64,000 nt of DNA, from the NCBI GenBank assembly GCA_937935355.1, contig CALGYR010000143.1, forward strand, positions 8,077-72,076. Direction: 5' to 3'. This document shows positions 5,291-61,532 of the stretch, in pieces. The position numbers were made by a program, and so were the translations under genes. The notes under the pieces are model-generated. The model saw only the letters and a list, made by a program, of their open reading frames with translations, had not been told where the DNA came from and did not search any database. This stretch comes from an uncultured bacterium. Lineage in GTDB: Bacteria; Planctomycetota; SZUA-567; JAKLDR01. Position 1 is the first letter of the stretch. The number at the start of each line of letters is the position of its first letter.

Positions 5291-5358
5291 TCGCGCTCGC
5301 CGTTGAGATGACATCTTGATCTTGAGTCAGCGTAGAGCAGAGGGAGGCCGGTCTGCTG

Positions 5359-6255
5359 ATGCAAGAGAGCCCAGCGAAGCGCCCATGGCTGCGTCCCGTG
5401 GTTTACGGGGCGGTGGCCGTCGTGGCAGCCACGTCGATCTACCTGGTCAAGCACCCGCCATTCCACGCCGAGCTTCCTCCGAAGAAGGAAGTCCCCTACA
5501 CGCCTCCGCCGACCAAGGCTCCGAAGCTCTCCGGCTTCGTGAACCGCGAGGAGGCCTATGAGAAGCGGGTGACGCCTGATATGGACACGAGGCTCCCCGA
5601 GGTCAAGGAGACCCAGGACGTCTCGGCGGTGATCCAAGTGCTGATGGACACCAAGGACAAGGACGCCACCCGGAACGAGGCGGCCAACCTCCTCCGTCGC
5701 TCGGGCAGCAAGGATCTTAGCGGCCGACTCATCCGGATACTCTGGAACCCGCAGGAGGGTGAACGTTTCCGGGGGTTCTGCGTTCAACACCTCTCGCTGA
5801 ACCTCCCCCAGGCGGGGGAAACAGAGAAGGCGGAGATCATCGCCACACTGCATAAATGCCTGGCTGACAAGCACTTATCCGTGCGCCGGGAGGCACTCCT
5901 GGCGCTCTCCTATGCCAATGACGCCGAAGCCCCGAAGGTGGCCGTGAAGTGGCTCTCTGCCTCCGAGGGCGAGGGTGCCCGCGACTTGGCCATCCGTTGT
6001 GTGGAGATCCTCGGGCTCAAGGACCAGATCCCCGAGATCCGGAAGTTCCTCAACTCTTCATCTGAACCCGAGCGCAAGCAGGCGATAGTGGTGCTCAGCC
6101 AGTGGGGCGACGAGGCCAGCCGTCCGGCCATCGAGGAGGCGGCCAAGTCCAAGTCGGTCCAGCTGCAGACCGCCGCCCAGATGGCGCTCAAGCGGCTGGA
6201 TGAGGCGAAGGCTGCCCCGGAGCGGGTCAAGGTTGACAGCGAATCGAAACCGTAA
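5359..6255 (+). CDS. HEAT/PBS-lyase-repeat protein with N-terminal transmembrane anchor
   Basis: TM segment WLRPVVYGAVAVVAATSIYLV. Repeated helical HEAT-like units follow (...LSVRREALLALSYANDAEA..., ...RKQAIVVLSQWGDEAS...). Confidence 0.7.
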   Translation: MQESPAKRPWLRPVVYGAVAVVAATSIYLVKHPPFHAELPPKKEVPYTPPPTKAPKLSGFVNREEAYEKRVTPDMDTRLPEVKETQDVSAVIQVLMDTKDKDATRNEAANLLRRSGSKDLSGRLIRILWNPQEGERFRGFCVQHLSLNLPQAGETEKAEIIATLHKCLADKHLSVRREALLALSYANDAEAPKVAVKWLSASEGEGARDLAIRCVEILGLKDQIPEIRKFLNSSSEPERKQAIVVLSQWGDEASRPAIEEAAKSKSVQLQTAAQMALKRLDEAKAAPERVKVDSESKP

Positions 6256-23026: not shown

Positions 23027-23087
23027 TGTCCCCATGTCTCCGTGTCCCCGTGTCCCCGCGTCGCCACGTCCCCGCGTCCCCGTACAT
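23027..23087. repeat. heptamer array A4 (forward orientation)
   Basis: tgtccccatgtctccgtgtccccgtgtccccgcgtcgccacgtccccgcgtccccgtac, in a divergent intergenic region. Confidence 0.7.
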
Positions 23088-27488: not shown

Positions 27489-28508
27489 ATGATCAGCGCC
27501 GGAAGACTCGGCAGGTACTGCATCGGATTGGCCGGCGCCGCGGGATTGCTCGCGGCCTCCGGCTGCCACTTCGAGGCCACCCGGACCAGGACGGCGCCGC
27601 CGCCCCCTCCCCCGCCGCCCCGGGTGGTGGTGGTCGAGCAGCCCGCCCAGATCGTGGTGGTGCACACCGCGCCGCCCGCTCCGCGGGGCGAAGTCATCCC
27701 GCCGGCCCCGTCCCGGAACCACGTCTGGGTCCCGGGACACTGGTTCTGGCGCGGCGGCCAGTGGGTGTGGCTCTCCGGCCACTACGAGGCCCGTCCGCAC
27801 GCCGACTCCGAGTGGGTAGCCGCCGACTGGAAGCGCAAGGGCGGACAGTGGGAGTACGCTCCCGGCCACTGGCGCGACAATTCCCGTCGCAATGACCATC
27901 CCGTCCCGCCCCCGCCCCAACCCAAGCCCCAGCCGCCGGTGACGCACGCGCCGCCTCCGCCGCCGCCGCCCGCGCCGCATCGCGACGTGGTCCTCAGCGA
28001 GCAGCCGCGGGTGGTGGTGGTGGTCCGCACCGCCCCGCCGGCGCTGAAGCCGGAGGCGGTCCCGCCGGCCCCGTCGAAGAACCACGTCTGGATGCCCGGT
28101 CACTGGTACTGGAGCGACAACCAGTGGGCCTGGGTCAAGGGCTCCTACGCGGCCAGGCCGCACGCGGACGCCCGCTGGGTCCCGGCCTGCTGGCGCGAGG
28201 AGCGCGGCGAGTGGCGCTACGTCCCGGGCAGCTGGAGCGCGCCGGCCGCCAAGACCCCGCCGTCCCGCCCGGTCGTCCCCCCCGGCCATGACAAGGACCA
28301 GGACCGGGGGCATGGCAAGTCCGCTCCGCCGGTCCAGGAGCCGGCCCGGCCCGTCGTTCCGTCGCGCGGCAACGACCGCGACAACGGCAAGTCCTCCCCG
28401 CCGCCCAAGGCCGGCGACAAGGACAACGGCAAGGACAAAGACAGGGGTAAAGGCAAGGACAAGGATAGGGACGAGGACGACTCCGGCGGCCCTGCCAGGA
28501 GGCGCTGA
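27489..28508 (+). CDS. proline-rich lipoprotein with two copies of a Trp-rich WXXGXW-type module
   Basis: Lipobox LLAASGCH. Internal duplication: NHVWVPGHWFWRGGQWVWLSGHYEARPHADSEWV vs NHVWMPGHWYWSDNQWAWVKGSYAARPHADARWV. C-terminal K/D/G-rich tail. Confidence 0.65.
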   Translation: MISAGRLGRYCIGLAGAAGLLAASGCHFEATRTRTAPPPPPPPPRVVVVEQPAQIVVVHTAPPAPRGEVIPPAPSRNHVWVPGHWFWRGGQWVWLSGHYEARPHADSEWVAADWKRKGGQWEYAPGHWRDNSRRNDHPVPPPPQPKPQPPVTHAPPPPPPPAPHRDVVLSEQPRVVVVVRTAPPALKPEAVPPAPSKNHVWMPGHWYWSDNQWAWVKGSYAARPHADARWVPACWREERGEWRYVPGSWSAPAAKTPPSRPVVPPGHDKDQDRGHGKSAPPVQEPARPVVPSRGNDRDNGKSSPPPKAGDKDNGKDKDRGKGKDKDRDEDDSGGPARRR

Positions 28509-28509
28509 A

Positions 28510-28576
28510 GGCGAAGTTCCTGGTTCGTGGCTGTGAACCAGGAACGACGAACCAGGAACCAAGAACCAGGAACCAG
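28510..28576. terminator. hairpin between convergent genes; arms built from (GGTTCCT)/(GAACCAG) tandem units
   Basis: GTTCCTGGTTCGTGGCTGTGAACCAGGAACGACGAACCAGGAACCAAGAACCAGGAACCAGGAACC. Probable bidirectional terminator; there is no T-run. Confidence 0.5.
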
Positions 28577-28586
28577 GAACCCGCTG

Positions 28587-30245
28587 TTAGTCGGCGATCC
28601 GCTTCCAGTCCAGTCCGAACCTCGCCAGGTACTTCCTGAGCCGGTCGGCGTCATTGGTGCGGCTCCGGCGCAGCCGCGAGGTGGCGAATAGCGCCCGGCC
28701 GGCATCCGAGAGCGAGCGCGAGCGGCGGCAGACCCGCACTACTCCGGCCAGCTGCATCCGGTCGAATAGGTCGAGCCCGCCGAGCCGCTCGGCGCCCAGC
28801 AGCGCTCCGAGCTCCCCTTCCCCGTCGCCGGCAGCGTCCACGCCTGCCGCCCCTGCCGCCCCTGCCGCCCCTGCTGCCCCCGATGCCGGGCTCTCCGGGT
28901 CACGCCAGGACTCGAGCAGCCTCGCGAGCTCCTCCTCGACGATCTCGATGTTGATGCGGCCTCCGGGCGCCAGCGTCGCCATCCGGGTGATGGAGGCGTC
29001 GAGGTCGCGGAAGTTGGCCGCCCAGCGCGCCTGGGGCGAGGTCGCGAAGGCCAGATAGCGGTCGCGGGCCTCCTTGTTGAAGGTCACGTGGGCGCCGCTG
29101 GTTCGCGCGTAGCCGTCGAGTTCGTACTGGAGATTGGGCTCGATGTCCTCGGCGCGCTCGCGGAGCCCGGGGAGCCGGAAGGTCCAGAGGTTGATGCGGG
29201 TGAGCAGGTCCTCGCGGAAGCGCCCGGCGGCGACGTCCGCGGAGAGGTCCCGGTTCGTGCCGCAGATCAGCTGGAAGTCGCTCCCGGCCTCCTCGTCGGC
29301 GCCCATGGGCAGGAAGCGCTTTTCCTCGAGCGCGCGCAGCAGCATGGCCTGCTCGTCGAGGCCGAGCTCGCCGACCTCGTCGAGGAAGAGCATGCCGCCG
29401 TCGGCGGCGCGGAGCAGCCCGGCCCGGTCCTGGAGCGCGCCGGTGAAGGCGCCCTTCCGGTGGCCGAAGAGCGCGCTCATGGCCGCGTCGCCGCGCAGCG
29501 TCGCGCAGTTGACCTCCACGAAGGCGCCCTCGAACTGCCGCCGGGCGCGCTTCAACTCGTAGATCCGCCGGGCGAGCTGGCTTTTCCCCGCGCCCGTGGG
29601 GCCCATGAGCAGCACCGGCGCCTCCGAGTGGATGGCCACGCGCTCGATCTGTTCGATCATCCGGTTGAAGGCGGCGTTGCGGGTCTCGATGCCTGACTTC
29701 AGGAGCGAGACCTCGTCGGCCTGCTCCTTCCGGAAGCGCGTCGCGATCCGGTCGTACTTCGAAAGGTCCAGGTCGATGATACGGTACTCGCCGGGCGACT
29801 CGATGATGCTGCGCTTCGGCGGGCTCGACTGGACGAGCCGCGCCGGAAAGGCCCGCGACTCGGTGAGCAGGAAGAGGCAGATCTGGGCCACGTGCGTCCC
29901 GGTGGTGATGTGGACCAGGTAGTCCTCCTCGTCGGGGTCGAAGGGGTAGGCGTGGGCGAAGTCGTGGAGCGCGCCGTAGACCTCCTCGAAGTCCCAGGGG
30001 TCCTGGAGCTCGACCTCGGTGCAGCGCACCTCGGTCTCGGGCGAGACGTCGCGGACGTCGCGCGCGAGCGTCTCGCACAGGCGCGTCCAGCGCTTCTGGT
30101 AGAGCAGCTCGTAGCGGTCGACGATCAGGTCCTCGTGCTGGCACAGCGACACCGACGGCCGCCACTTCTCCCAACGCCGGTGGCCGGCCCCCTCGTCGAG
30201 CGTGGGGCCGAGCAGGCCGATGAGGACGGTCTTTTTGGCTGTCAT
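28587..30245 (-). CDS. rtcR: sigma54-dependent transcriptional regulator RtcR (CARF-like N-domain, AAA+ sigma54-interaction domain, C-terminal HTH)
   Basis: The N-terminus aligns closely with E. coli RtcR (...RWEKWRPSVSLCQHEDLIVDRYELLY...PETEV...ELQDPWDFEEVYGALHDFA...YLVHITTGTHVAQICLFLL...ARLVQSSPPK). Central domain has GPTGAGKS Walker A and the GAFTGA motif. Confidence 0.9.
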   Translation of the reverse strand: MTAKKTVLIGLLGPTLDEGAGHRRWEKWRPSVSLCQHEDLIVDRYELLYQKRWTRLCETLARDVRDVSPETEVRCTEVELQDPWDFEEVYGALHDFAHAYPFDPDEEDYLVHITTGTHVAQICLFLLTESRAFPARLVQSSPPKRSIIESPGEYRIIDLDLSKYDRIATRFRKEQADEVSLLKSGIETRNAAFNRMIEQIERVAIHSEAPVLLMGPTGAGKSQLARRIYELKRARRQFEGAFVEVNCATLRGDAAMSALFGHRKGAFTGALQDRAGLLRAADGGMLFLDEVGELGLDEQAMLLRALEEKRFLPMGADEEAGSDFQLICGTNRDLSADVAAGRFREDLLTRINLWTFRLPGLRERAEDIEPNLQYELDGYARTSGAHVTFNKEARDRYLAFATSPQARWAANFRDLDASITRMATLAPGGRINIEIVEEELARLLESWRDPESPASGAAGAAGAAGAAGVDAAGDGEGELGALLGAERLGGLDLFDRMQLAGVVRVCRRSRSLSDAGRALFATSRLRRSRTNDADRLRKYLARFGLDWKRIAD

Positions 30246-30512
30246 CTTATGTCTCCGGCTAAAGAAGTAGCATATAAGATAGTACTAGCAGGTGGTCTGC
30301 AGTCAATCGCAAACGTCGACTTCTCTGGCTGCACAACGTAAGTGACGGATATGCGCTTGTTGCGCCTTGAGCGCCGAAAATCTCGGTGCGTTCCGACTTC
30401 TGGCACGTGCCGTGTTATTGGAGCCTCCCGGTTGACACGGCCGGGCCGGCGGCGCACGAGTCTCACCCGGTGATCGACGACGTGCGTTCCGCGGAGGGAT
30501 CTGACGATGGCG

Positions 30513-30585
30513 TGTCAGCAGCGAGTGTCGCTCAACGGCAGAGCACCGGGCCTGTAGCCCGGGGATGCGGGTTCGAATCCCGCCA
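30513..30585 (+). tRNA. tRNA-like cloverleaf A (Thr-like; anticodon-position TGT); atypical, possibly a pseudo-tRNA or mimic
   Basis: Fold: acceptor GCGAGTG/CATTCGA with a G1:A72 mismatch. D-arm GCTC-AACGGCA-GAGC, anticodon arm CCGGG-CCTGTAG-CCCGG (C at position 33 where U is near-invariant), T-arm GCGGG-TTCGAAT-CCCGC. No CCA. Its 3' end overlaps the next element by ~3 nt. Confidence 0.4.
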
Positions 30586-30588
30586 TTC

Positions 30589-30672
30589 GATCGGACAGCC
30601 CAACGGCTGGGCACCAGACTGAGGATCTGGCGAGCGTAAGCTCATGCAGGTTCGAATCCTGCTCCGAAGGCC
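30589..30672 (+). tRNA. tRNA-like cloverleaf B (class II, Leu-like; anticodon GAG); acceptor end imperfect
   Basis: D-arm GCCC-AACGGCT-GGGC. Anticodon arm CCAGA-CTGAGGA-TCTGG (U33 present). Long variable arm C-GAGC-GTAA-GCTC-AT. T-arm GCAGG-TTCGAAT-CCTGC. The acceptor GATCGGA/TCCGAAG pairs in only 5 of 7 positions. Confidence 0.45.
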
Positions 30673-31185
30673 TTTAAGGCTTTCCAAACGGCTGGAGGGG
30701 AGCGGCCGCTCGACCTGCCGGCCGGGAAGAGGACTCCGGTGGAACCTCGCCCGGCAGCATGCGAGCTCGCCCTGAGGCGCGCGGATACCGTCCCGCCCGA
30801 AACCCCGCGACGGCCCCGGGAAGAAAGTCGAGGCCCGCACGGCTCGATGGATTCCCCGCGCCAGAGCGGGTTAGTAGGGCAGGTCTCAAACGCGACCCCG
30901 CGAAGGAACTGCGGTGGACGGACGGCCGCTCCCTGAAGGCTAGCACATCGAGCGATTGGAGGGCGAGGCTCCTGCCGAGCCGCGCCCCACATCGAGAGAA
31001 GAACGAACCGGCTCGCCAGGAGGCTCGCCCTCCAGACGGCCGCAAGAAGAAATAAGCCTACGGAGAGAAGAGAAACGATGAGAGCACCAAGCTGGTCGCT
31101 GGCCTAACGGGAAGGCGACCGGTCGCGACGGAAGGTCCCGGGGAGTCTCCGGGGCGATCAGTCAAAGCTGAAAGGGGGAATGGGT

Positions 31186-31257
31186 TGGCTGCTAGCTCAA
31201 GCGGCAGAGCACCCGCCCGCAAGGCGGACCATCCTGGCTCGAAACCAGGGCAGTCAG
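31186..31257 (+). tRNA. tRNA-like cloverleaf C (Cys-like; anticodon GCA); atypical C33 and C54
   Basis: Acceptor TGGCTGC/GCAGTCA (7 bp including one G:U), U8. D-arm GCTC-AAGCGGCA-GAGC. Anticodon arm CCCGC-CCGCAAG-GCGGA (C33, G38). T-arm CCTGG-CTCGAAA-CCAGG (C54). Discriminator G, no CCA. Confidence 0.5.
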
Positions 31258-31264
31258 CCGGAAC

Positions 31265-31340
31265 TGGTCGCTAGCTCAAGGGATAGAGCGTCCGCCCGCG
31301 AAGCGGGAGAGTCCTGGTTCGAATCCGGGGCGACCAGCCA
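31265..31340 (+). tRNA. tRNA-like cloverleaf D (Arg-like D-arm; anticodon-position GCG); atypical C33
   Basis: Acceptor TGGTCGC/GCGACCA, U8A9. D-arm GCTC-AAGGGATA-GAGC. Anticodon arm TCCGC-CCGCGAA-GCGGG (C33; a GCG anticodon is not normally used in bacteria). T-arm CCTGG-TTCGAAT-CCGGG. G + CCA encoded. Begins 5 nt after element C. Confidence 0.5.
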
Positions 31341-31350
31341 GACGCTGGAA

Positions 31351-31412
31351 GGCACATAGGCACATAGGCACATAGGGACTGAGGCACTGAGGCACTGAGG
31401 CACTTAGGCGCT
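31351..31412. repeat. tandem octamer repeats (GGCACATA)x3 then (GGCACTGA)x4
   Basis: ggcacataggcacataggcacatagggactgaggcactgaggcactgaggcacttaggcgctgag, directly after tRNA-like D and upstream of the SPFH gene. Confidence 0.7.
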
Positions 31413-31417
31413 GAGCG

Positions 31418-31434
31418 AAGGCAAGCGCGTTGCC
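31418..31434 (+). promoter_or_regulatory. sigma54-type promoter candidate (aGGCAAG-cgcg-TTGCc; GG-N10-GC)
   Basis: Matches TGGCACG-N4-TTGCW at 12 of 14 positions with correct -24 GG / -12 GC spacing, 14 nt upstream of the SPFH start codon. Expected for an RtcR-controlled operon. Caveat: the predicted TSS would leave almost no leader. Confidence 0.35.
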
Positions 31435-31447
31435 GGAGGGAAGAACG

Positions 31448-32554
31448 ATGTTGTTCGTGAAGCGGATCAAGATCGCCAAGCTCGAGAAGGGGCTCTACTT
31501 CAAGGACCGGGAGTTCCAGGGCATCCTGGAGCCGGGCAAGTACCGGTTCCTCGACCCGCTCGGCAAGGTCCGGGTCGAGGTCGTCTCGGTGCGCGACCCG
31601 TGGCTGGTCCACCGCGAGCTCGACGTGATCGTCAAGTCGGGCGCGCTCAAGGACCGGGCGGCCGTCGTGGACCTGAAGGACCACGAGCGGGCCCTGGTCT
31701 GGATCGACGGCCGGTTCGACACGGTGCTCGACTCGGGCCTCTGGGCGCTCTGGACCGGCTTCCGCGACGTCAGGGTCGAGATGGTCGACGCGCGGCAGGT
31801 GCGGTTCGAGCACGCCGAGCTCCAGACCATCCTAAAGGCCAAGGGCGCCGACGCCGTCTTCAACGTCTTCACTGTCGAGGACGGCCACGCGGGCCTGTAC
31901 TTCAGGGACGGCGAGTTCGCGAGCCGTCTGGGTCCGGGCACCTACGCCTTCTGGAAGAACGTCGGCAGGGTGAAGCTCTACCAGGTCGACATGCGCGAGG
32001 CGGTGGCCGACGTCGCCGGTCAGGAGATCATGACCGCCGACAAGGTCACCCTGCGACTCAACGCGGTAGTGACCTACCGCGTCTCGGACCCGGTGAAGAC
32101 CGTGACCGAGGTGGAGGACGCCAGGCAGGCGCTCTACCGCGAGGCGCAGCTCGCGCTCCGCGCGGTGATCGGCACCCGGGAGCTCGACGCGCTGCTCTCG
32201 GACAAGGACGCCGTGGCCCGCGAGTGGGAGGACATGGTGCGCCGGCGCGCCCCGGCCTTCGGCATGGGCGTGGTCGCGCTCGGCATCCGCGACGTGATCC
32301 TCCCCGGGGAGATGAAGGAGCTCATGAACAGGGTCACCGAGGCGAAGAAGGCGGCCGAGGCCGCGCTCATCACCCGGCGCGAGGAGACCGCCGCGATGCG
32401 CTCGCAGTCGAACACCGCCCGGATCCTCGCGGAGAACCCGACCCTCATGCGCATCAGGGAGCTGGAGGTGCTGGAGAAGATTGCCGGCAAGGCCAGGCTC
32501 AACGTGGTCCTGGGCGACAAGGGTCTGACCGAGAAGGTGGTCAACTTGCTATAG
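31448..32554 (+). CDS. SPFH/band-7 (slipin/stomatin-like) domain protein
   Basis: Start at ATG 31448 (GGAGGG RBS) inside ORF 31430..32554. The central region (...ADKVTLRLNAVVTYRVSDP...GIRDVILPGEMKELMNRVTEAKKAAEA...) is typical of the SPFH domain. Confidence 0.8.
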   Translation: MLFVKRIKIAKLEKGLYFKDREFQGILEPGKYRFLDPLGKVRVEVVSVRDPWLVHRELDVIVKSGALKDRAAVVDLKDHERALVWIDGRFDTVLDSGLWALWTGFRDVRVEMVDARQVRFEHAELQTILKAKGADAVFNVFTVEDGHAGLYFRDGEFASRLGPGTYAFWKNVGRVKLYQVDMREAVADVAGQEIMTADKVTLRLNAVVTYRVSDPVKTVTEVEDARQALYREAQLALRAVIGTRELDALLSDKDAVAREWEDMVRRRAPAFGMGVVALGIRDVILPGEMKELMNRVTEAKKAAEAALITRREETAAMRSQSNTARILAENPTLMRIRELEVLEKIAGKARLNVVLGDKGLTEKVVNLL

Positions 32555-32614: not shown

Positions 32615-32687
32615 GCCACAGATAAACACAGATGAACACCGATGAGGACGACCTATAATCTGTGTCCATCTGTGTGCATCTGTGGCT
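32615..32687. repeat. MITE-like palindromic element, copy 2
   Basis: gccacagataaacacagatgaacaccgatgaggacgacctataatctgtgtccatctgtgtgcatctgtggct, 25 nt upstream of the rtcA start. Confidence 0.7.
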
Positions 32688-32711
32688 AAGAGCTGCTTCT
32701 GGAGTGAGGCC

Positions 32712-33731
32712 ATGATTACGATAGATGGTTCATTCGGCGAAGGCGGCGGGCAGATCCTCAGGACCGCCCTGGGCCTCTCGCTCGTCACCGGCAAGCCCTT
32801 CCGGATCGAGAAGATCCGGGCGGGTCGCAAGAAGCCTGGGCTCTTGCGGCAGCACCTCACTGCGGTGAACGCCGCGGCCGAGGTCGGCCGGGCCGGGGTC
32901 CGCGGCGCGGCGCTCGGCTCCGGTGAGCTCGTCTTCGAGCCGGGCCAGGTGGCTGGCGGGCGCTACCGCTGGGCCATCGGCACGGCCGGCAGCGCGACGC
33001 TCGTGCTCCAGACCGTTCTGCCGGCGCTCTTGACCGCCAGGGAGCCGAGCTCCTTGAAGCTCGAGGGCGGCACTCACAACCCGTTCGCTCCGCCCTTCGA
33101 CTTCCTCCAGAAGGCCTTCCTGCCGCTGGTATGCCGGATGGGCCCGAAGGTGGAGGCGACGCTCGTCCGGCCCGGCTTCTATCCGGCCGGCGGCGGCTGC
33201 TTCAAGGTGGAAGTCGCGCCGGCGGAGCGGCTCTCGCGGATCGACATCCCCGAGCGGGGCGAGGTCCGGCGGCGGCTGGCCCGGGCGCTCGTCGCCAACC
33301 TGCCGCTGCACATAGCGACGCGGGAGCTCACGGTCATCGGCCGGAAGCTCAACTGGCCGGACGAGTGCCTGAGGGCCGAGCCCGTCGAGGGCTCGCAGGG
33401 GCCGGGGAACATCGTGGTGATCGAGATCGAGGGCGAGGGCGTCACCGAGGTGGTCACCGGCTTCGGCGAGAAGGGCGTGCCCGCCGAGAGCGTCGCCGAC
33501 GCAGCGGTCCGGGAGGCGCGGGAGTACATCGCCGCGGGGGCCCCGGTCGGCGCGCACCTGGCCGATCAGCTCTTGGTGCCCATGGCGCTCGCCGGCGGCG
33601 GGAGCTTCCGGACGGCCGCGCCGACGCGGCATACCACGACCAACGCCAAGATCATCGGCCGGTTCCTGGATGTCGCGGTGAGGATCGAGAGGGAGGATTC
33701 GGCGACCTGGAAGGTCGCCATTTCCTCGTAG
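32712..33731 (+). CDS. rtcA: RNA 3'-terminal phosphate cyclase RtcA
   Basis: MITIDGSFGEGGGQILRTALGLSLVTGKPFRIEKIRAGRKKPGLLRQHLTAV is the hallmark N-terminus of RtcA. Full-length similarity to the family. GGAGTGAGG RBS before ATG 32712. Confidence 0.9.
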   Translation: MITIDGSFGEGGGQILRTALGLSLVTGKPFRIEKIRAGRKKPGLLRQHLTAVNAAAEVGRAGVRGAALGSGELVFEPGQVAGGRYRWAIGTAGSATLVLQTVLPALLTAREPSSLKLEGGTHNPFAPPFDFLQKAFLPLVCRMGPKVEATLVRPGFYPAGGGCFKVEVAPAERLSRIDIPERGEVRRRLARALVANLPLHIATRELTVIGRKLNWPDECLRAEPVEGSQGPGNIVVIEIEGEGVTEVVTGFGEKGVPAESVADAAVREAREYIAAGAPVGAHLADQLLVPMALAGGGSFRTAAPTRHTTTNAKIIGRFLDVAVRIEREDSATWKVAISS

Positions 33732-33860: not shown

Positions 33861-34463
33861 ATGCCCATCTACGGAGACGCTCCCAAGCTGCGCGCGGAAG
33901 TCGACCGTCAGTTGCTCGAGGATCTGCGACACTACGGCTTCGACACGGCCGGGTTGCGGATCGACTGGTCGGATGGCTGCCAGGAGGGTCATAGTGCCAG
34001 GTTCATGGATGGTGAGTTGGAGGACGACTCTTCGGTTGGGGTCCTGGATGCCGCGGGCAACGCCGTGGCCGGAGGCGCCATCAATTTCCAAAACGACGGC
34101 GACCGGGAGTTGGTGGTGTACTGGGAGGGCTTGTCTCGCTTTCAAGGGAAGGAACCGGTCGTGCTCACACGGACGTGCTGGGCTCCTTTTCCGGAGCACG
34201 TCTGGGAGCGAATGTCGGACCGTTTGAAAGACATCTGCGCACGGAAACACGCGGTGCGTTGGACGAACTCGGACCGGTGGACGAGAGAGAAGTGGCAGAA
34301 GGAGAACCCGGGGCTGGTGGCAGCCATGGAATCTTCCGCTCGTACCCCCTCTCCCCTTGAGGGAGAGGGCGGGGGTGAGGGGTTAGCCCCGGAGCCCACC
34401 CCTCACCCTGACCCTCTCCCCCAAGGGGAGAGGGGACCTAAGAGGATGGAGAATTCGGCATGA
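33861..34463 (+). CDS. hypothetical protein embedded in the rtcA-rtcB interval
   Basis: 200-aa ORF with an RBS. No recognisable domain. Its last ~40 codons (..TPSPLEGEGGGEGLAPEPTPHPDPLPQGERGP..) are encoded by REP-like copy B. Confidence 0.45.
   Translation: MPIYGDAPKLRAEVDRQLLEDLRHYGFDTAGLRIDWSDGCQEGHSARFMDGELEDDSSVGVLDAAGNAVAGGAINFQNDGDRELVVYWEGLSRFQGKEPVVLTRTCWAPFPEHVWERMSDRLKDICARKHAVRWTNSDRWTREKWQKENPGLVAAMESSARTPSPLEGEGGGEGLAPEPTPHPDPLPQGERGPKRMENSA
34338..34442. repeat. REP-like 100-bp palindromic element, copy B
   Basis: ccctctccccttgagggagagggcgggggtgaggggttagccccggagcccacccctcaccctgaccctctcccccaaggggagagg. Direct repeat of copy A. Confidence 0.65.
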
Positions 34464-35137
34464 AGCCGCGGCCTTGTCCTGAGCGCTACGCCGGGTACGT
34501 GGAGCATCCGCGATACGGCCGTGCGCCTCGCCTCACCGGCCTGGATCCCGATCCGGACTCGCCGGAGGTGCGCCTGCACTGGAACACGCGGCACTGCACG
34601 GATGCTCAGTTGAAGACGATGAAGAGGCTTCTGGGCTGGAGCCCGGCCTTCCCCGACGACGGCACACGGATGGTGCCCGGCACGGCCGTGGCCGCGGACG
34701 TGGCGCGCCAGACGCCCGCGACCGTGCCTGTCACCCACTACTACGACATCGACAAGGTCTGCCGGGACTGTCGCCGGAGATTCATCTTCTTCGCCGAGGA
34801 GCAGAAGCACTGGTACGAAGAGCTCGAATTCCCGCTCGATGCCGACGCGGTGCGCTGCGCTCCCTGTCGGAAGCGCATGCAGCACATCGGTCGGGCACGC
34901 AAGCGTTACGAGCAGTTGTCCCACGTGGCATCCCGGAACCTCGAGGAGACTCTGGAGATGGCTGACTGCTGCCTGATGCTGATCGAGGAAGCCGTCTTCC
35001 ATCAACGGCAGGCCGAGCGCGTCCGGATGCTCCTCGGGCGCGTTCCTGAGGCTGCAAAACGGGATCGGCGAGTAACGGATTTGACCGCCCGCCTCCGCGC
35101 TGTCGAGGCGGACGCGAAGCAAGGAGGTCGCAAGTGA
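34460..35137 (+). CDS. hypothetical zinc-ribbon protein, translationally coupled to rtcB
   Basis: Cys pairs CRDCRRRF...CAPCRKR suggest a zinc ribbon. Its stop overlaps the rtcB start (ATGA at 35134-35137) and its start overlaps the upstream stop. Unknown family. Confidence 0.5.
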   Translation: MKPRPCPERYAGYVEHPRYGRAPRLTGLDPDPDSPEVRLHWNTRHCTDAQLKTMKRLLGWSPAFPDDGTRMVPGTAVAADVARQTPATVPVTHYYDIDKVCRDCRRRFIFFAEEQKHWYEELEFPLDADAVRCAPCRKRMQHIGRARKRYEQLSHVASRNLEETLEMADCCLMLIEEAVFHQRQAERVRMLLGRVPEAAKRDRRVTDLTARLRAVEADAKQGGRK

Positions 35138-36528
35138 AGCCCAAGGAACTGATTGCGCTGGGTATTCCCCAGGGGGAGGCTACGAAGCGGGCCATCGCCG
35201 CCGTCCGGGCCGCGTCGCGGGCCGGCAAGGAGAAGATGGAGGTCGAGTCCGACCTCATCGCCCTGGTCGAGGACCCGGACCGGTTTGTCGAGGACGAGGT
35301 CTACGGCGAGCTCGCCGGCTACCTCGCCGAGGCGCAGCAGGCGCCGCCGGTCCGCGAGTCGCCCGTGCCCTACCGGCGTTGGGGCGAGGGGATCGAGCCC
35401 ACCGCCATCGGCCAGATGGAGAGCGCCTGCCGGCTGCCCGTCTCGGTCCGAGGGGCCTTGATGCCCGACGCCCACCAGGGCTACGGCCTGCCCATCGGAG
35501 GGGTGCTCGCCGTGCGCGACGCGGTCATCCCCTACGCGGTGGGCATGGACATTGCCTGCCGGATGAAGATGACCGTCCTCGACCTGCCCGTCGAGGCCTT
35601 GAAGCGGGATGAGAAGCGGCTGGAGGCCGCGCTGGTCCGCGAGACCGACTTCGGCATCGGTGCGTCCTTCGCCAGGCGGCGCGAACATCCGGTGATGGAC
35701 GAGGACTGGTCGGTGAGCCCCGTCACGATCCGCCACAAGGACCGCGCCTGGGCGCAGCTCGGCACCTCGGGCAGCGGCAACCACTTCGTGGAGTACGGCG
35801 TGCTCACCGTCGAGAGCGAGGCCGGCGCGCTGGGCCTCGCGCCCGGGACGTACCTCGCGATCCTGAGCCACAGCGGCAGCCGCGGCACGGGCGGCGAGGT
35901 CGCGCGCTACTACAGCGACCTGGCCATGCGCCTGCACCGCGATCTGCCCCGGGAACTCCTGCACCTGGCGTGGCTCTCGCTCGAGAGCCAGGAGGGCCGG
36001 GAGTACTGGGCGGCCATGGAGCTCATGGGCCGCTACGCCGCGGCCAACCACGAGCTCATCCACCGGCACATGGCCAGGGCGCTGGGCGTCAACGTGCTCC
36101 TCGACATCGAGAACCACCACAACTTCGCCTGGCGGGAGGAGCACTATGGCGAGGGGGTGGTGGTCCACAGGAAGGGTGCCACCCCGGCGGGGGAGGACGC
36201 CATCGGGATCATCCCCGGCTCGATGGCCACGCCGGCCTTCGTGGTCCGGGGCAAGGGCGAGCCCGAGTCGCTCAACTCCGCCTCCCACGGCGCAGGCCGC
36301 AAGATGAGCCGCACCGAGGCCAAGCGCCGCTTCCGACAGCACGACTTGGACGCCTTCCTGGCCGAGCGCGGCGTGAAGCTGCTCTCGGCGGGCATCGACG
36401 AGGCGCCCATGGCCTACAAGAAGATCGAGGAGGTCATGGCGGCGCAGACCGATCTCGTCGAGCCGCTGGCCAGGTTCGAGCCGAAACTGGTGCGCATGGC
36501 ACCGGGCTCTGAGAGAGCCGAAGATTAG
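35134..36528 (+). CDS. rtcB: RNA-splicing ligase RtcB (3'-phosphate/5'-OH RNA ligase)
   Basis: Signature RtcB metal- and GTP-binding motifs: MPDAHQGYG, GTSGSGNHF, SHSGSRG, NHHNF, SASHGAGR. Carries a ~70-aa N-terminal extension. Confidence 0.9.
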   Translation: MKPKELIALGIPQGEATKRAIAAVRAASRAGKEKMEVESDLIALVEDPDRFVEDEVYGELAGYLAEAQQAPPVRESPVPYRRWGEGIEPTAIGQMESACRLPVSVRGALMPDAHQGYGLPIGGVLAVRDAVIPYAVGMDIACRMKMTVLDLPVEALKRDEKRLEAALVRETDFGIGASFARRREHPVMDEDWSVSPVTIRHKDRAWAQLGTSGSGNHFVEYGVLTVESEAGALGLAPGTYLAILSHSGSRGTGGEVARYYSDLAMRLHRDLPRELLHLAWLSLESQEGREYWAAMELMGRYAAANHELIHRHMARALGVNVLLDIENHHNFAWREEHYGEGVVVHRKGATPAGEDAIGIIPGSMATPAFVVRGKGEPESLNSASHGAGRKMSRTEAKRRFRQHDLDAFLAERGVKLLSAGIDEAPMAYKKIEEVMAAQTDLVEPLARFEPKLVRMAPGSERAED

Positions 36529-36694: not shown

Positions 36695-37507
36695 ATGGAG
36701 ATGGCGATGTTCGACGTACGACAGGCTGACTTGGCGAAGCTGAACAGCCTCACCAAGTACCCCTCGATACCGACCTATCACGTGCTCGACGAGGGCAACG
36801 GCAGCCTCGGGGAGGACCATGTGGCCTTCGATGGCCGGGTCCTGGCCACTGAGAAGGTCGACGGCACCAATTCGCGCGTGATCTGTCTGCCGGACGGCAG
36901 CTACCTGCTGGGCAGTCGCGAGGAGTTGCTCTACGCCCGGGGGGATCTCATCGGCAACCCGTCGATGGGCATCGTCGCCGCCATGAAGGACAAGGCGGAT
37001 GAGCTCCGTGGCCGCGCCCCCGACCGTGTGCGCGTCTTCTTCTGCGAGTTCTACGGCGGGGCGGTGACGGCCAACAGCCGGCAGTACACGGGGGAGCGCC
37101 GTGCGGGCTTCCGGCTCTTCGACGTGGCCGAGATCGAAGATTACGCCGCCGTCCTCGACCGTCCGGCGGCGGCGATCGCCGCATGGCGGGACGGGGGCGG
37201 GCAGCGCTACCTGGCCGAAGACGATCTCCGGCAGTTGGCCGCGGCGTCCGGCCTGGAACTGACGCCCCGCGTGGCCGAGTTGGATGCCGGGGCGCTTCCC
37301 GGGAGCCTGGTCGACGGTCTGGCCTTTCTGCAGCGGACGATCACGAAGAGCGGCTGCGTGCTCGACGACAAGGCCGGCGGCAGGCCGGAGGGCCTCGTGG
37401 TGAGGACGCCCGACCGTCGGGTCATCGCCAAGCTGCGGTTCCAAGACTACGAGAGGACGCTCAAACGGCGCGAGAAGGACGCCGGGAGCGGCAGGCGAAA
37501 GGAGTGA
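36695..37507 (+). CDS. ATP-dependent RNA ligase (Rnl-type covalent nucleotidyltransferase)
   Basis: Motif I TEKVDGTNSRV (KxDGxN). Downstream ...FFCEFYGG..., EGLVVRT (motif IV EGxV) and VIAKLRF (motif V lysine). Compact 270 aa with no obvious OB or extra domains. The true start may be ATG 36701 or 36707. Confidence 0.7.
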   Translation: MEMAMFDVRQADLAKLNSLTKYPSIPTYHVLDEGNGSLGEDHVAFDGRVLATEKVDGTNSRVICLPDGSYLLGSREELLYARGDLIGNPSMGIVAAMKDKADELRGRAPDRVRVFFCEFYGGAVTANSRQYTGERRAGFRLFDVAEIEDYAAVLDRPAAAIAAWRDGGGQRYLAEDDLRQLAAASGLELTPRVAELDAGALPGSLVDGLAFLQRTITKSGCVLDDKAGGRPEGLVVRTPDRRVIAKLRFQDYERTLKRREKDAGSGRRKE

Positions 37508-37530
37508 GGCAGCGCGGTTGCCGACGCATC

Positions 37531-38307
37531 ATGGATACCAGGCATCTTATCGCCCAGTTCGGGAGGATCGGTGCGCGCCTGCAGGTCAGGAGCGCTCCGG
37601 AAGATCGCCGCGTGCGGGTCTTGGGGTTTGCGCTGGATGTGCGCGGCGACCGACGCGGTGAGTTTTTCGAACTCATCGCACCGCAGGACCGCGGCTTCCG
37701 GGTGTTGGCCCTGGACGCGAAGGATCGCCATCTCCTGCTGGAGGCCGAGGCCGACAGCGAGCGCTTCCTCTGCGGTCACGACGAGCGCCACTGGTTCGTG
37801 GCCGGCGTTAGCAACCGGGTGAGCTCGGTCCGGGCGGCAAAAGAGTCGCTGAGGCCCGAGATCGTGAGCCGGTCGCTCGAGGATCACGGTGTCCGGCCCA
37901 AGGACCGCGACCGGCGGCGGAACAAGGGCTTCGTGCGCCAGGGCGAATGGTTCTTCATTCCGGTCGGGAGGCTGGCCGTCAAGGAGAAGCTGATCCTGCG
38001 CAACGAGCCGCTCGTGCGCGGCCGTGGCAAGCCCCACATGGCCGAGGAGCTCTACCGCGAAGGCGGCCAGACCGTCCACGTCTGCCCGAAGTATCCGAAT
38101 GGCGTCACGCCGAAGGAGTACGCGGAGCTGATCGCAGCCCGGCCCGATCTCCGCCGGCTGAACTGGCGGGTGATGAGCCGCAACCCGCGGGCCTACGTCC
38201 GCGGCCGGATCCGCCATCCGGACCACAAGACCGTCCTGCTCCGCGTCTGGCACCGGGTGGTGCCCAACCAGGAGCGGATGAGCCAGAACATGGCGTTTCT
38301 GGACTGA
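37531..38307 (+). CDS. hypothetical protein (257 aa), immediately downstream of the RNA ligase
   Basis: Starts at ATG 37531 inside artefact ORF 37183..38307. Protein-like composition with no recognisable motif. Confidence 0.5.
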   Translation: MDTRHLIAQFGRIGARLQVRSAPEDRRVRVLGFALDVRGDRRGEFFELIAPQDRGFRVLALDAKDRHLLLEAEADSERFLCGHDERHWFVAGVSNRVSSVRAAKESLRPEIVSRSLEDHGVRPKDRDRRRNKGFVRQGEWFFIPVGRLAVKEKLILRNEPLVRGRGKPHMAEELYREGGQTVHVCPKYPNGVTPKEYAELIAARPDLRRLNWRVMSRNPRAYVRGRIRHPDHKTVLLRVWHRVVPNQERMSQNMAFLD

Positions 38308-61282: not shown

Positions 61283-61505
61283 ACTCAGGTCGGTCGGACG
61301 GTCAGAAGCCAACAGCCAACAGCCAACAGCCAACAGCCAACGACTGACAGGCAATGCCTTTACCCTGAGACAGGAGCAGGCCATGGCGGTCGGACTTGCC
61401 TGCGGCCTACCGCTCCGCCATAGCAGTCCGGTGCTCCTCAATGGTTGTTGGTTATTGGTTTGTTGGCTGTTGGTTGCTGGTTGCTGGTCTGTTGGTTGTT
61501 GGCTG
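61283..61505. repeat. inverted repeat with arms of (CCAACAG)n and (CTGTTGG)n tandem units
   Basis: agccaacagccaacagccaacagccaacagccaacgactgacag ... ggttgttggttattggtttgttggctgttggttgctggttgctggtctgttggttgttggctgttcg, ~110-bp spacer. Confidence 0.7.
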
Positions 61506-61532
61506 TTCGTCCCCATCTCGGGAAAGAGGCCC

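Follow-up and report, generated by a model that had tools for sequence, protein, structure and literature searches.

The window, by which we mean the whole 64,000-nucleotide (nt) stretch of DNA that was analysed, carries six tRNA-type genes according to ARAGORN, and four of these lie within 820 nt on the plus strand, between the divergently oriented gene rtcR and an operon for RNA repair. A sequence-only reading had folded these four (in the following A, B, C and D) as non-canonical cloverleafs, and ARAGORN calls every one of them. The same reading placed them directly before the rtc operon. RtcA and RtcB are indeed encoded downstream, but the first gene 3' of D, which was overlooked, codes for a Band-7/SPFH protein of the slipin family (31448-32554, plus strand, Pfam Band_7), and D ends 107 nt before it. 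In a passage of Wang et al. (bioRxiv 10.1101/312249), RtcB of certain bacteria is described as adjoining a Band-7 protein and a predicted non-coding RNA (ncRNA) that strongly resembles tRNA, the b7a-tRNA. As read from the sequence, A to D belong to a leader with the order 5' element, A and B, a multi-helix RNA of approximately 250 nt, C and D, which is followed by the genes for Band-7, RtcA, further proteins, RtcB and an RNA ligase.

Cloverleafs with drifting anticodons

Element A (30521-30592; 30521-30591 in the feature listing) is called Thr(tgt), B (30589-30672) Leu(gag), C (31186-31259) Cys(gca) and D (31265-31340) Arg(gcg), all on the plus strand. The anticodon loops of A (CCTGTAG), C (CCGCAAG) and D (CCGCGAA) have C33, and the T-loop of C (CTCGAAA) has C54 where A, B and D have GGTTCGAATCC, so that the canonical U33 is missing from three of the elements and the canonical T54 from C. 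U33 is present in the loop of B (CTGAGGA) and in the ordinary tRNA-Lys and tRNA-Glu of the window. The acceptor stem of A has a G1·A72 mismatch, that of B is mismatched at its two terminal positions, and the anticodon of D is GCG. These peculiarities had all been pointed out in the sequence-only reading; they are all seen in the sequence and in the ARAGORN drawings. B has an acceptor stem of 5 bp and a long variable arm, C ends in G73-CC, and D has an acceptor stem of 7 bp and an encoded G73-CCA.

Only A (51.9 bits) and D (54.3 bits) exceed the gathering score of 29 of the Rfam tRNA model RF00005, which assigns 75.4 and 60.2 bits to the tRNA-Lys and tRNA-Glu of the window. B scores best against the tRNA-Sec model (20.5 bits), and for C no Rfam tRNA match was obtained at E ≤ 10. 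Scoring by Rfam had been proposed as a check on the four elements, two of which thus pass the general tRNA model and two of which do not. With 74% identity between them, C and D can be addressed as paralogues. In terms of sequence identity, the closest non-orthologous matches of A to D are elements at the b7a position of other loci and not tRNAs with the same anticodon from the tRNA arrays described below.

A comparative alignment, which had also been suggested, was possible with three close relatives, whose Band-7 proteins are 96% (L085), 90% (L081) and 69% (L089) identical to that of the window. All four positions hold cloverleafs in each of them, and the stems are kept by compensatory changes. 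The acceptor stem of A reads CGAGTG/CATTCG, GGATG/CATCC and CGGGACG/CGTCCCG across the orthologues, that of B TCGGA:TCCGA or GTGAC:GTCAC, and the D-stem of C GCTC/GAGC or GCTT/AAGC. The anticodons shift at each position. In A they are TGT, TGT and CGG (loop CCTGTAG in the window and L081, ATCGGGT in L089), in B GAG, GAG and TGG, in C GCA, CTT and CCA (loops CCGCAAG, CTCTTAA and CTCCAAA), and in D GCG, GCG and GTT, with the loop TTGCGAA, including U33, in L081 and CTGTTAA in L089. The aberrant T-loop of C and its acceptor stem are kept in all three lineages. The long variable arm of B and its unusual D-arm are lineage-specific and missing from L081, and L089 has three head-to-tail fusions of the kind that joins A and B.

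On these alignments, the conservation of the four elements with compensatory changes in their stems is more than can be attributed to chance. Since the stems are compensated while the anticodon shifts at each position, selection seems to act on the shape of the elements and not on decoding. A to D are therefore best regarded as tRNA-derived elements that are not decoding tRNAs, as the sequence-only reading had supposed.

The comparison was extended to 80 genome loci, three loci on viral contigs and 80 metagenome loci that were collected by a DNA pattern. The Band-7 protein has thousands of relatives, and approximately 60 distant loci have a tRNA-like element whose anticodon varies, at a distance of about 250-620 nt, mostly about 430-560 nt, 5' of the Band-7 start. 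When 37 such b7a-position elements are aligned, a cloverleaf results whose acceptor stem has 5 bp, with positions 1 and 2 unpaired, and 14 of the 19 pairs show compensatory changes. The Rfam tRNA model aligns these elements just locally (model positions 3-68, 4-67 or 5-66). Their anticodon stem, CCAGA/TCTGG, is strongly conserved, the loops measure 6-8 nt, and the triplets are not conserved: ATG (six times), AAC, ATT, AAG, AAA and TTA occur, next to "anticodons" of two or four nt. No conserved pairing was found between the sequences on either side of the b7a element, such as would enclose the element in a stem, as in YrlA.

B has all three traits of this family, namely the 5-bp acceptor stem, the unconserved anticodon and the location between the 5' element and the large RNA. 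It also has the anticodon stem CCAGA/TCTGG and ends 3 nt 5' of the large RNA, as at other loci, and we regard it as the b7a-tRNA proper. A shares the traits as an extra tandem copy fused head to tail with B. C and D have the unconserved anticodon in common with the family, but their acceptor stems are of 7 bp and they lie 3' of the large RNA, C as a clade-specific extra copy. Because the acceptor stem of the b7a type comprises 5 bp, the frayed end of B and the overlap of A and B turn out to be family traits. The overlap, from which it had been concluded that A and B could not both be excised intact, amounts to 4 nt in the ARAGORN calls, and position 72 of A (30590) simply abuts the first paired base of B (30591). 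As a side observation, the b7a-type elements of six loci (L006, L020, L022, L041, L043 and L048) encode the 3' end CCACCA (ACCGACCACCA), and CCA is encoded by approximately one third of the b7a-position elements compared to 14% of the array members.

The variable loops raise the question of whether the elements could be nuclease-resistant inhibitors or sponges of anticodon nucleases or tRNA-targeting toxins, which would spare the real tRNAs during repair by RtcB; the sequence-only reading had similarly considered them as bait for toxins. C33 is found in A, C and D and in about one in three of the 37 aligned loops, and the anticodon loop turns over fast between close relatives. The same idea has been raised for YrlA's tRNA-like domain, which is not cut by the Salmonella anticodon nuclease (PMC7790460), and array tRNAs have been proposed as sponges in Anabaena (PMC8421152). 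However, 12 of the 38 ARAGORN calls at the b7a position have A34 (ATG, AAC, ATT, AAG or AAA), which is hardly used by bacterial tRNAs, and together with the loops of 6 or 8 nt this suggests that no specific target is mimicked. Nor would a sponge account for the fact that the elements are strictly linked with the 5' element, the large RNA and the Band-7 gene. We therefore consider this explanation unlikely.

Structured RNAs around the cloverleafs

The approximately 510 nt between B and C had been passed over in the sequence-only reading. This interval contains a conserved, large multi-helix RNA at 30691-30940 (match of the hidden Markov model (HMM) at 30675-30945). Iterative nhmmer searches seeded with window positions 30673-30945 found it in 76 of 95 sources, and it is conserved in Planctomycetota, Acidobacteriota, Desulfobacterota and Omnitrophota, for instance at 5558-5855 of L012 and 5587-5948 of L010. 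It always lies 3' of a tRNA-like element and mostly 20-250 nt 5' of the Band-7 gene, and its length ranges from 221 to 447 nt (220-450-nt class). RNAalifold on the nhmmer match columns recovered a part of the structure and a scan of column pairs few helices; an alignment of 43 representatives by MAFFT, folded by RNAalifold, proved usable. It yielded 45 pairs, 37 of them with compensatory changes, arranged as nested helices with one side hairpin, and in the window the closing helix joins 30691-30706 with 30925-30940. The fraction of paired cells was 91.2%, compared to 77.3% after shuffling (0 of 500 shuffles reached the observed value) and 36-50% in slid controls, and the covariation score was 0.492, compared to 0.237 and 0.09-0.15, respectively. 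The frequent G-U pairs assign the RNA to the plus strand. A coding function of the interval between B and C was considered and ruled out by a 110-nt insertion or deletion relative to L081, the lengths of 221-447 nt and the covarying helices.

A second conserved structured element of about 90 nt (30431-30516, plus strand) begins just after the predicted transcription start and is characterized by the sequence blocks CCAGCGGCG...GTGTTCCG...GGGTTCTGAC. Iterative nhmmer searches found this 5' element in 79 loci, usually 3-20 nt 5' of the first tRNA-like element. It starts right after a sigma54-type promoter in loci linked to RtcR and after the last array tRNA, Cys(gca), in loci with a tRNA array. 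RNAalifold predicts 15 pairs, 10 of which show compensatory changes, with 92.6% pairing compared to 81.6% after shuffling (0 of 500) and 29-49% in slid controls.

Neither the large RNA nor the 5' element matched a family of Rfam 15 when window positions 30200-31500, L012 and six array loci were searched. In particular, there was no match to GOLLD or ROOL at E ≤ 10 in window positions 30200-31500 and L012 positions 5330-5990, and none at the gathering score in the six array loci.

The components of the leader occur together almost without exception. For 74 loci of the large RNA, 70 nt or more of the upstream sequence were available, and in all 74 a b7a-type element lies within 150 nt of it, with a median gap of 28 nt. 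Metagenomes were also searched independently of the protein, with the 19-mer TGYAGTGYGTGGATACCGC. The large RNA was matched in 72 of the 80 loci obtained in this way, and in 51 of the 53 cases with at least 500 nt of downstream sequence a Band-7 gene follows, 49 times within 400 nt. The two metagenome loci L118 and L149 carry the only two clear copies of the large RNA without a Band-7 gene in the 850-1000 nt available downstream.

This arrangement is relevant for the idea that the cloverleafs are processing punctuation only, that is, sites in cis for RNase P and RNase Z which free the large RNA and the 5' element and set the 5' end of the Band-7 mRNA. Precedents exist in MALAT1-mascRNA and in the tRNA punctuation of mitochondria. 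The large RNA is bracketed by tRNA-like elements on both sides in the window, L081 and L089; elsewhere the tRNA-like element lies 3-104 nt 5' of the large RNA and mostly 3-20 nt 3' of the 5' element. It would also fit that the anticodon varies and that conservation is seen in the arms read by the enzymes (acceptor, T and D). On the other hand, the anticodon stem CCAGA/TCTGG is strongly conserved though neither RNase needs it, and a frayed 5-bp acceptor stem is a poorer substrate for processing. Furthermore, the tandem copies (two to three upstream, two downstream) exceed what punctuation would need, and most loci have no mimic 3' of the large RNA. Punctuation as the sole function is thus doubtful as well.

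The remaining features of the leader are less widespread. A long perfect hairpin at 30956-31035 (plus strand, fold z-score -3.2) lies in an insertion of approximately 110 nt specific to the lineage of the window and is missing from L081; a match to mir-967 is spurious. Two short hairpins at 31091-31160 (plus strand), 5' of C, are conserved with L081 in alignment and fold. Between D and the ribosome-binding site of the Band-7 gene, Tandem Repeats Finder detected approximately 7.5 copies of an 8-nt repeat (AGGCACTG/AGGCACAT; 31350-31415, plus strand), which differ in copy number and sequence in L085 and L081. No intrinsic terminator-like site was found between the leader and the Band-7 gene. Intergenic tandem repeats of 7-10 nt are abundant in the window in general (227-311, 16078-17497, 23027-23083, 28416-28581, 32617-32684, 46763-46789 and 61307-61507), and an array of CACAGATGAA followed by the inverse ATCTGTGTCC occurs in at least three places, including the intergenic spacer of Band-7 and RtcA.

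Promoter, operon and tRNA arrays

The gene rtcR (28587-30245, minus strand) is divergent from the operon and encodes a protein with an RtcR/CARF-type N-terminal domain (Pfam RtcR 6.8e-85, Sigma54_activat 5e-50). A sigma54-type motif, TGGCACGTGCCGTGTT, is located at 30401-30416 on the plus strand; this pattern match has a perfect -24 and an imperfect -12 element. Since the pattern occurs 15 times in the window where 22.6 occurrences are expected, the number of matches is not above chance, and it is the position and the conservation that argue for the site. In L081 and L085 the motif is kept as TGGCAC..GCCGTGTTAT, and no other block of the rtcR-proximal spacer half is conserved; L089 has TGGCACGCATCGTGT. 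Distant loci linked to RtcR possess TGGCAC-N5-TTGC/TTGA 204-357 nt 5' of the large RNA (274 nt in the window), and a sigma54-type motif at a comparable upstream position was detected in RtcR-linked loci only.

The Salmonella RtcR binds 5' tRNA halves with a 2',3'-cyclic phosphate via its CARF domain and then activates a sigma54-dependent operon (PMC7790460). As the elements adjoin rtcR, the sequence-only reading had suggested that they might serve as sensor ligands of RtcR. In a feed-forward version of this idea, cleaved mimics would supply such 5' halves, which would be bound by the CARF domain and sustain the induction. Being located downstream of the RtcR-dependent promoter, the mimics cannot start the signal. 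Besides, RtcR is missing from the 6 kb around most homologous modules, and the Salmonella YrlA is not cleaved. A ligand function is accordingly the least probable of the explanations discussed here, and we think it very improbable.

The repair-operon setting described by the sequence-only reading holds true. On the plus strand, the Band-7 gene is followed by the genes for RtcA (32682-33731), an open reading frame (ORF) without assignment (33861-34463), a zf_Tbcl protein (34460-35137), RtcB (35134-36528) and an RNA ligase (PF09414, 36695-37507), all assigned by Pfam except for the unassigned ORF. The relatives have the same order of repair genes with Hen1 and RlaP added, and a context of RtcA, RtcB, RlaP and Hen1 recurs. 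The adjacent Band-7 gene on the same strand is found in approximately 75 related loci. Another ORF (37183-38307, plus strand), which overlaps the end of the RNA-ligase ORF and has no Pfam match, has homologues (47-49% identity) inside the tRNA arrays of L022, L041 and L050.

For the N-terminal approximately 180 amino acids of the Band-7 protein (31448-31990), three tandem five-strand beta repeats are predicted, followed by an SPFH domain and a long helix; neither an N-terminal helix nor a membrane anchor is predicted. The major vault protein (MVP) is its longest-aligning match in the Protein Data Bank, with modest scores. The predictions thus hint weakly at a kind of mini-vault. No close homologue of the Band-7 protein was found in isolated phages.

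In many Planctomycetota and Acidobacteriota, the module ends an array of 20-39 tRNA genes on the same strand with a conserved order. Towards the 3' end, the arrays read Trp, Thr, three to four times Arg and Cys, followed by the 5' element, the b7a element, the large RNA and the Band-7 gene. L004, L010, L012, L013, L019, L022, L023, L028, L030, L050, L091 and L092 are among these loci. L004 and L010 are two units of array and module that are 50 kb apart on one contig, and L092 lies on a 94-kb viral contig from IMG/VR with the whole module and an array. Among the loci with 1.5 kb or more of upstream sequence, 23 of 54 from genomes and 20 of 43 from metagenomes have at least five upstream tRNA calls. 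The array members score 31-74 bits with the Rfam tRNA model; 14% of them have C33 and 14% encode CCA. The anticodons GCG and TAT, which are rare in bacteria, are included. Genes for an HNH endonuclease and RlaP are located in or beside the arrays, the former for instance at 3864-4676 of L010, in the gap between His and Trp, and at 9501-10091 of L091, approximately 110 nt past the last downstream array tRNA. No array was found at the RtcR-linked loci (the window, L001, L029, L033, L062, L081 and L089). The module consequently has two alternative upstream contexts. With its four elements only, the window falls short of the approximately 20 or more close tRNA genes on one strand that characterize an L-array.

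The arrays offer a further explanation, namely that A to D are real, supernumerary decoding tRNAs, the shrunken remnant of a horizontally transferred L-array, and induced by stress. Homologous modules at the 3' end of ordered arrays, array members that score like tRNAs and the scores of A and D above the Rfam threshold would be in line with this, and in Anabaena the tRNAs of the L-array are reported to function and to be induced by stress (PMC8421152). However, the anticodons differ at orthologous positions, C33 is found in A, C and D and C54 in C, the scores of B and C fall short with the tRNA model, and A to D are closer to b7a-position elements than to array members with the same anticodon. 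Moreover, the supposed Leu element B has G73 and an orthologue without the long arm, and the supposed Cys element C has G73 too; by the rules of tRNA identity, G73 counts against both assignments. We consider it quite improbable that A to D are decoding tRNAs.

A proposed tRNA-repair particle and its relation to known systems

Overall, the explanation that we tentatively prefer, though with somewhat less than even confidence, is that A to D are modules of a structured leader of approximately 1 kb, and that the tRNA mimics and the large RNA are partners of a Band-7 oligomer in the repair of tRNA, induced by RtcR. We infer that the leader RNAs are transcribed, processed, bound by protein and functional. 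In such a scheme, RtcR would sense broken tRNA ends and the sigma54-type promoter would fire. The tRNA-shaped modules would be recognised by RNase P and RNase Z, whose cuts would divide the leader into stable fragments. Together with the Band-7 oligomer, the mimics and the large RNA could then form a ribonucleoprotein (RNP) by which tRNA-shaped substrates are recruited, held or shielded for RtcA, RtcB and possibly the ligase. This role would correspond to the one proposed for Ro60-YrlA in enterobacteria, and the mimics would read no codons. Among the other explanations, we rank nuclease decoys first, followed by processing punctuation, real supernumerary tRNAs and a source of RtcR ligands.

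Several observations weigh against the preferred explanation. A covariance model of the b7a family (R1) assigns 42.8-58.1 bits to A to D (43.8 to B and 42.8 to C) but 72.9 bits to the genuine tRNA-Lys. Sequence and structure alone thus do not separate the mimics from tRNAs, and the membership in the b7a family follows from position and features and not from the score. A full acceptor stem of 7 bp is found in D and partly in C, and D encodes G73-CCA and passes the Rfam threshold. Judged from these features, D may be aminoacylated. In the Band-7 protein, no RNA-binding domain was recognised. Finally, since most of the homologous modules sit behind tRNA arrays and lack a nearby RtcR, the control by RtcR is one regulatory option and does not define the system.

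The prediction of b7a-tRNA dates from 2016, and the window represents a four-copy variant of it as far as the quoted description goes. What appears to be new is the larger unit to which the mimic belongs as one module; it comprises the 5' element, one or more tRNA-like elements and the large 3' RNA, and neither an Rfam family nor a description in the literature searched was found for it. In addition, the lineage of the window has added the mimics C and D after the large RNA, and elsewhere the module ends arrays of 20-40 genes. The locus points to structural, not decoding, selection on the mimic. The mimic never stands alone, since two further structured RNAs flank it and the Band-7 gene follows, and the unit is either placed under an RtcR/sigma54-type promoter or located at the end of long mobile tRNA arrays. 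This bears on the role of bacterial RtcB operons and on the question of why these carry tRNA-shaped RNAs. The system would also be available as a defined RNA-protein system in cultured carriers (Adhaeretor mobilis, Lacipirellula limnantheis, Aeoliella and Bremerella).

One may go further and see in the 5' element, the one to three tRNA-like elements and the 3' domain of 220-450 nt a composite class of ornate RNA that is dedicated to a soluble SPFH protein, which might form a vault-like cage, as its partner and that moves with tRNA arrays or stands under RtcR as an RNP of the tRNA damage response. This wider proposal is more speculative than the one for the window itself, although we still consider it possible. 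If it is true, the composite RNA would be GOLLD-like, with both its protein partner and its pathway identifiable, and it would bear on why large ornate RNAs recur within tRNA gene clusters.

The nearest known relative is b7a-tRNA itself. The window has the cloverleaf, the adjacent Band-7 gene on the same strand and the neighbourhood of RtcB and repair genes that are described for it; B lies at exactly that position, and A, C and D are paralogues of B. It differs in possessing four copies, two of them 3' of the large RNA. The description as quoted in bioRxiv 10.1101/312249, through which the definition of 2016 is known to us, does not include the 5' element, the RNA of 220-450 nt or the linkage to arrays. 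The same passage, citing Burroughs and Aravind 2016, states that b7a-tRNA was proposed to be redundant with YrlA and had no experimental validation as of 2018. A literature search on the term b7a-tRNA yielded nothing beyond this preprint.

The Salmonella locus rsr-yrlBA-rtcBA resembles the window in a tRNA-mimicking ncRNA together with RtcB and RtcA under RtcR and sigma54, with a scaffold protein encoded beside it. In Salmonella YrlA stays uncleaved, and it may serve as a cofactor or as an inhibitor (PMC7790460). The analogy to Y RNAs drawn by the sequence-only reading stands as a parallel to the YrlA mimic without Ro60, but the elements are not Y RNAs themselves. YrlA is a circularly permuted module in the stem of a Y RNA, whereas A to D are cloverleafs of ordinary order, and no TROVE/Ro60 domain was detected by Pfam among the nine flanking ORFs scanned, those of the operon included. 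An identity of A to D with YrlA was rejected, as RF02553 gave 20.0 and 15.5 bits with a threshold of 69; these matches span the junctions of two tandem cloverleafs and reflect a permuted-order reading only.

With regard to the arrays, a mycobacterial cluster of approximately 32 tRNA genes contains a GOLLD RNA with an embedded pseudo-tRNA and an HNH endonuclease (PMC6582537). Likewise, a composite RNA with a tRNA-like element ends the arrays of 20-39 genes described here, with HNH genes in or beside them. However, the RNA is smaller than GOLLD, is tightly linked to the Band-7 gene and repair enzymes, and has no match to GOLLD or ROOL in Rfam. Santamaria-Gomez et al. (2021) listed L-arrays in Planctomycetes and found HNH and rtcB as neighbours in cyanobacteria (PMC8421152), and the loci homologous to the window, with up to 39 ordered tRNA genes on one strand and HNH and RNA-repair neighbours, carry arrays of this kind. 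In contrast to the array tRNAs of Anabaena, which are reported to decode, the elements of the window are unconstrained at the anticodon. On the side of the protein, the comparison leads to the vault, composed of MVP, vault RNA and TEP1. MVP combines beta repeats, an SPFH-type shoulder and a long cap helix, and the vault houses small RNAs; the Band-7 protein is likewise predicted to possess three beta repeats, an SPFH domain and a long helix.

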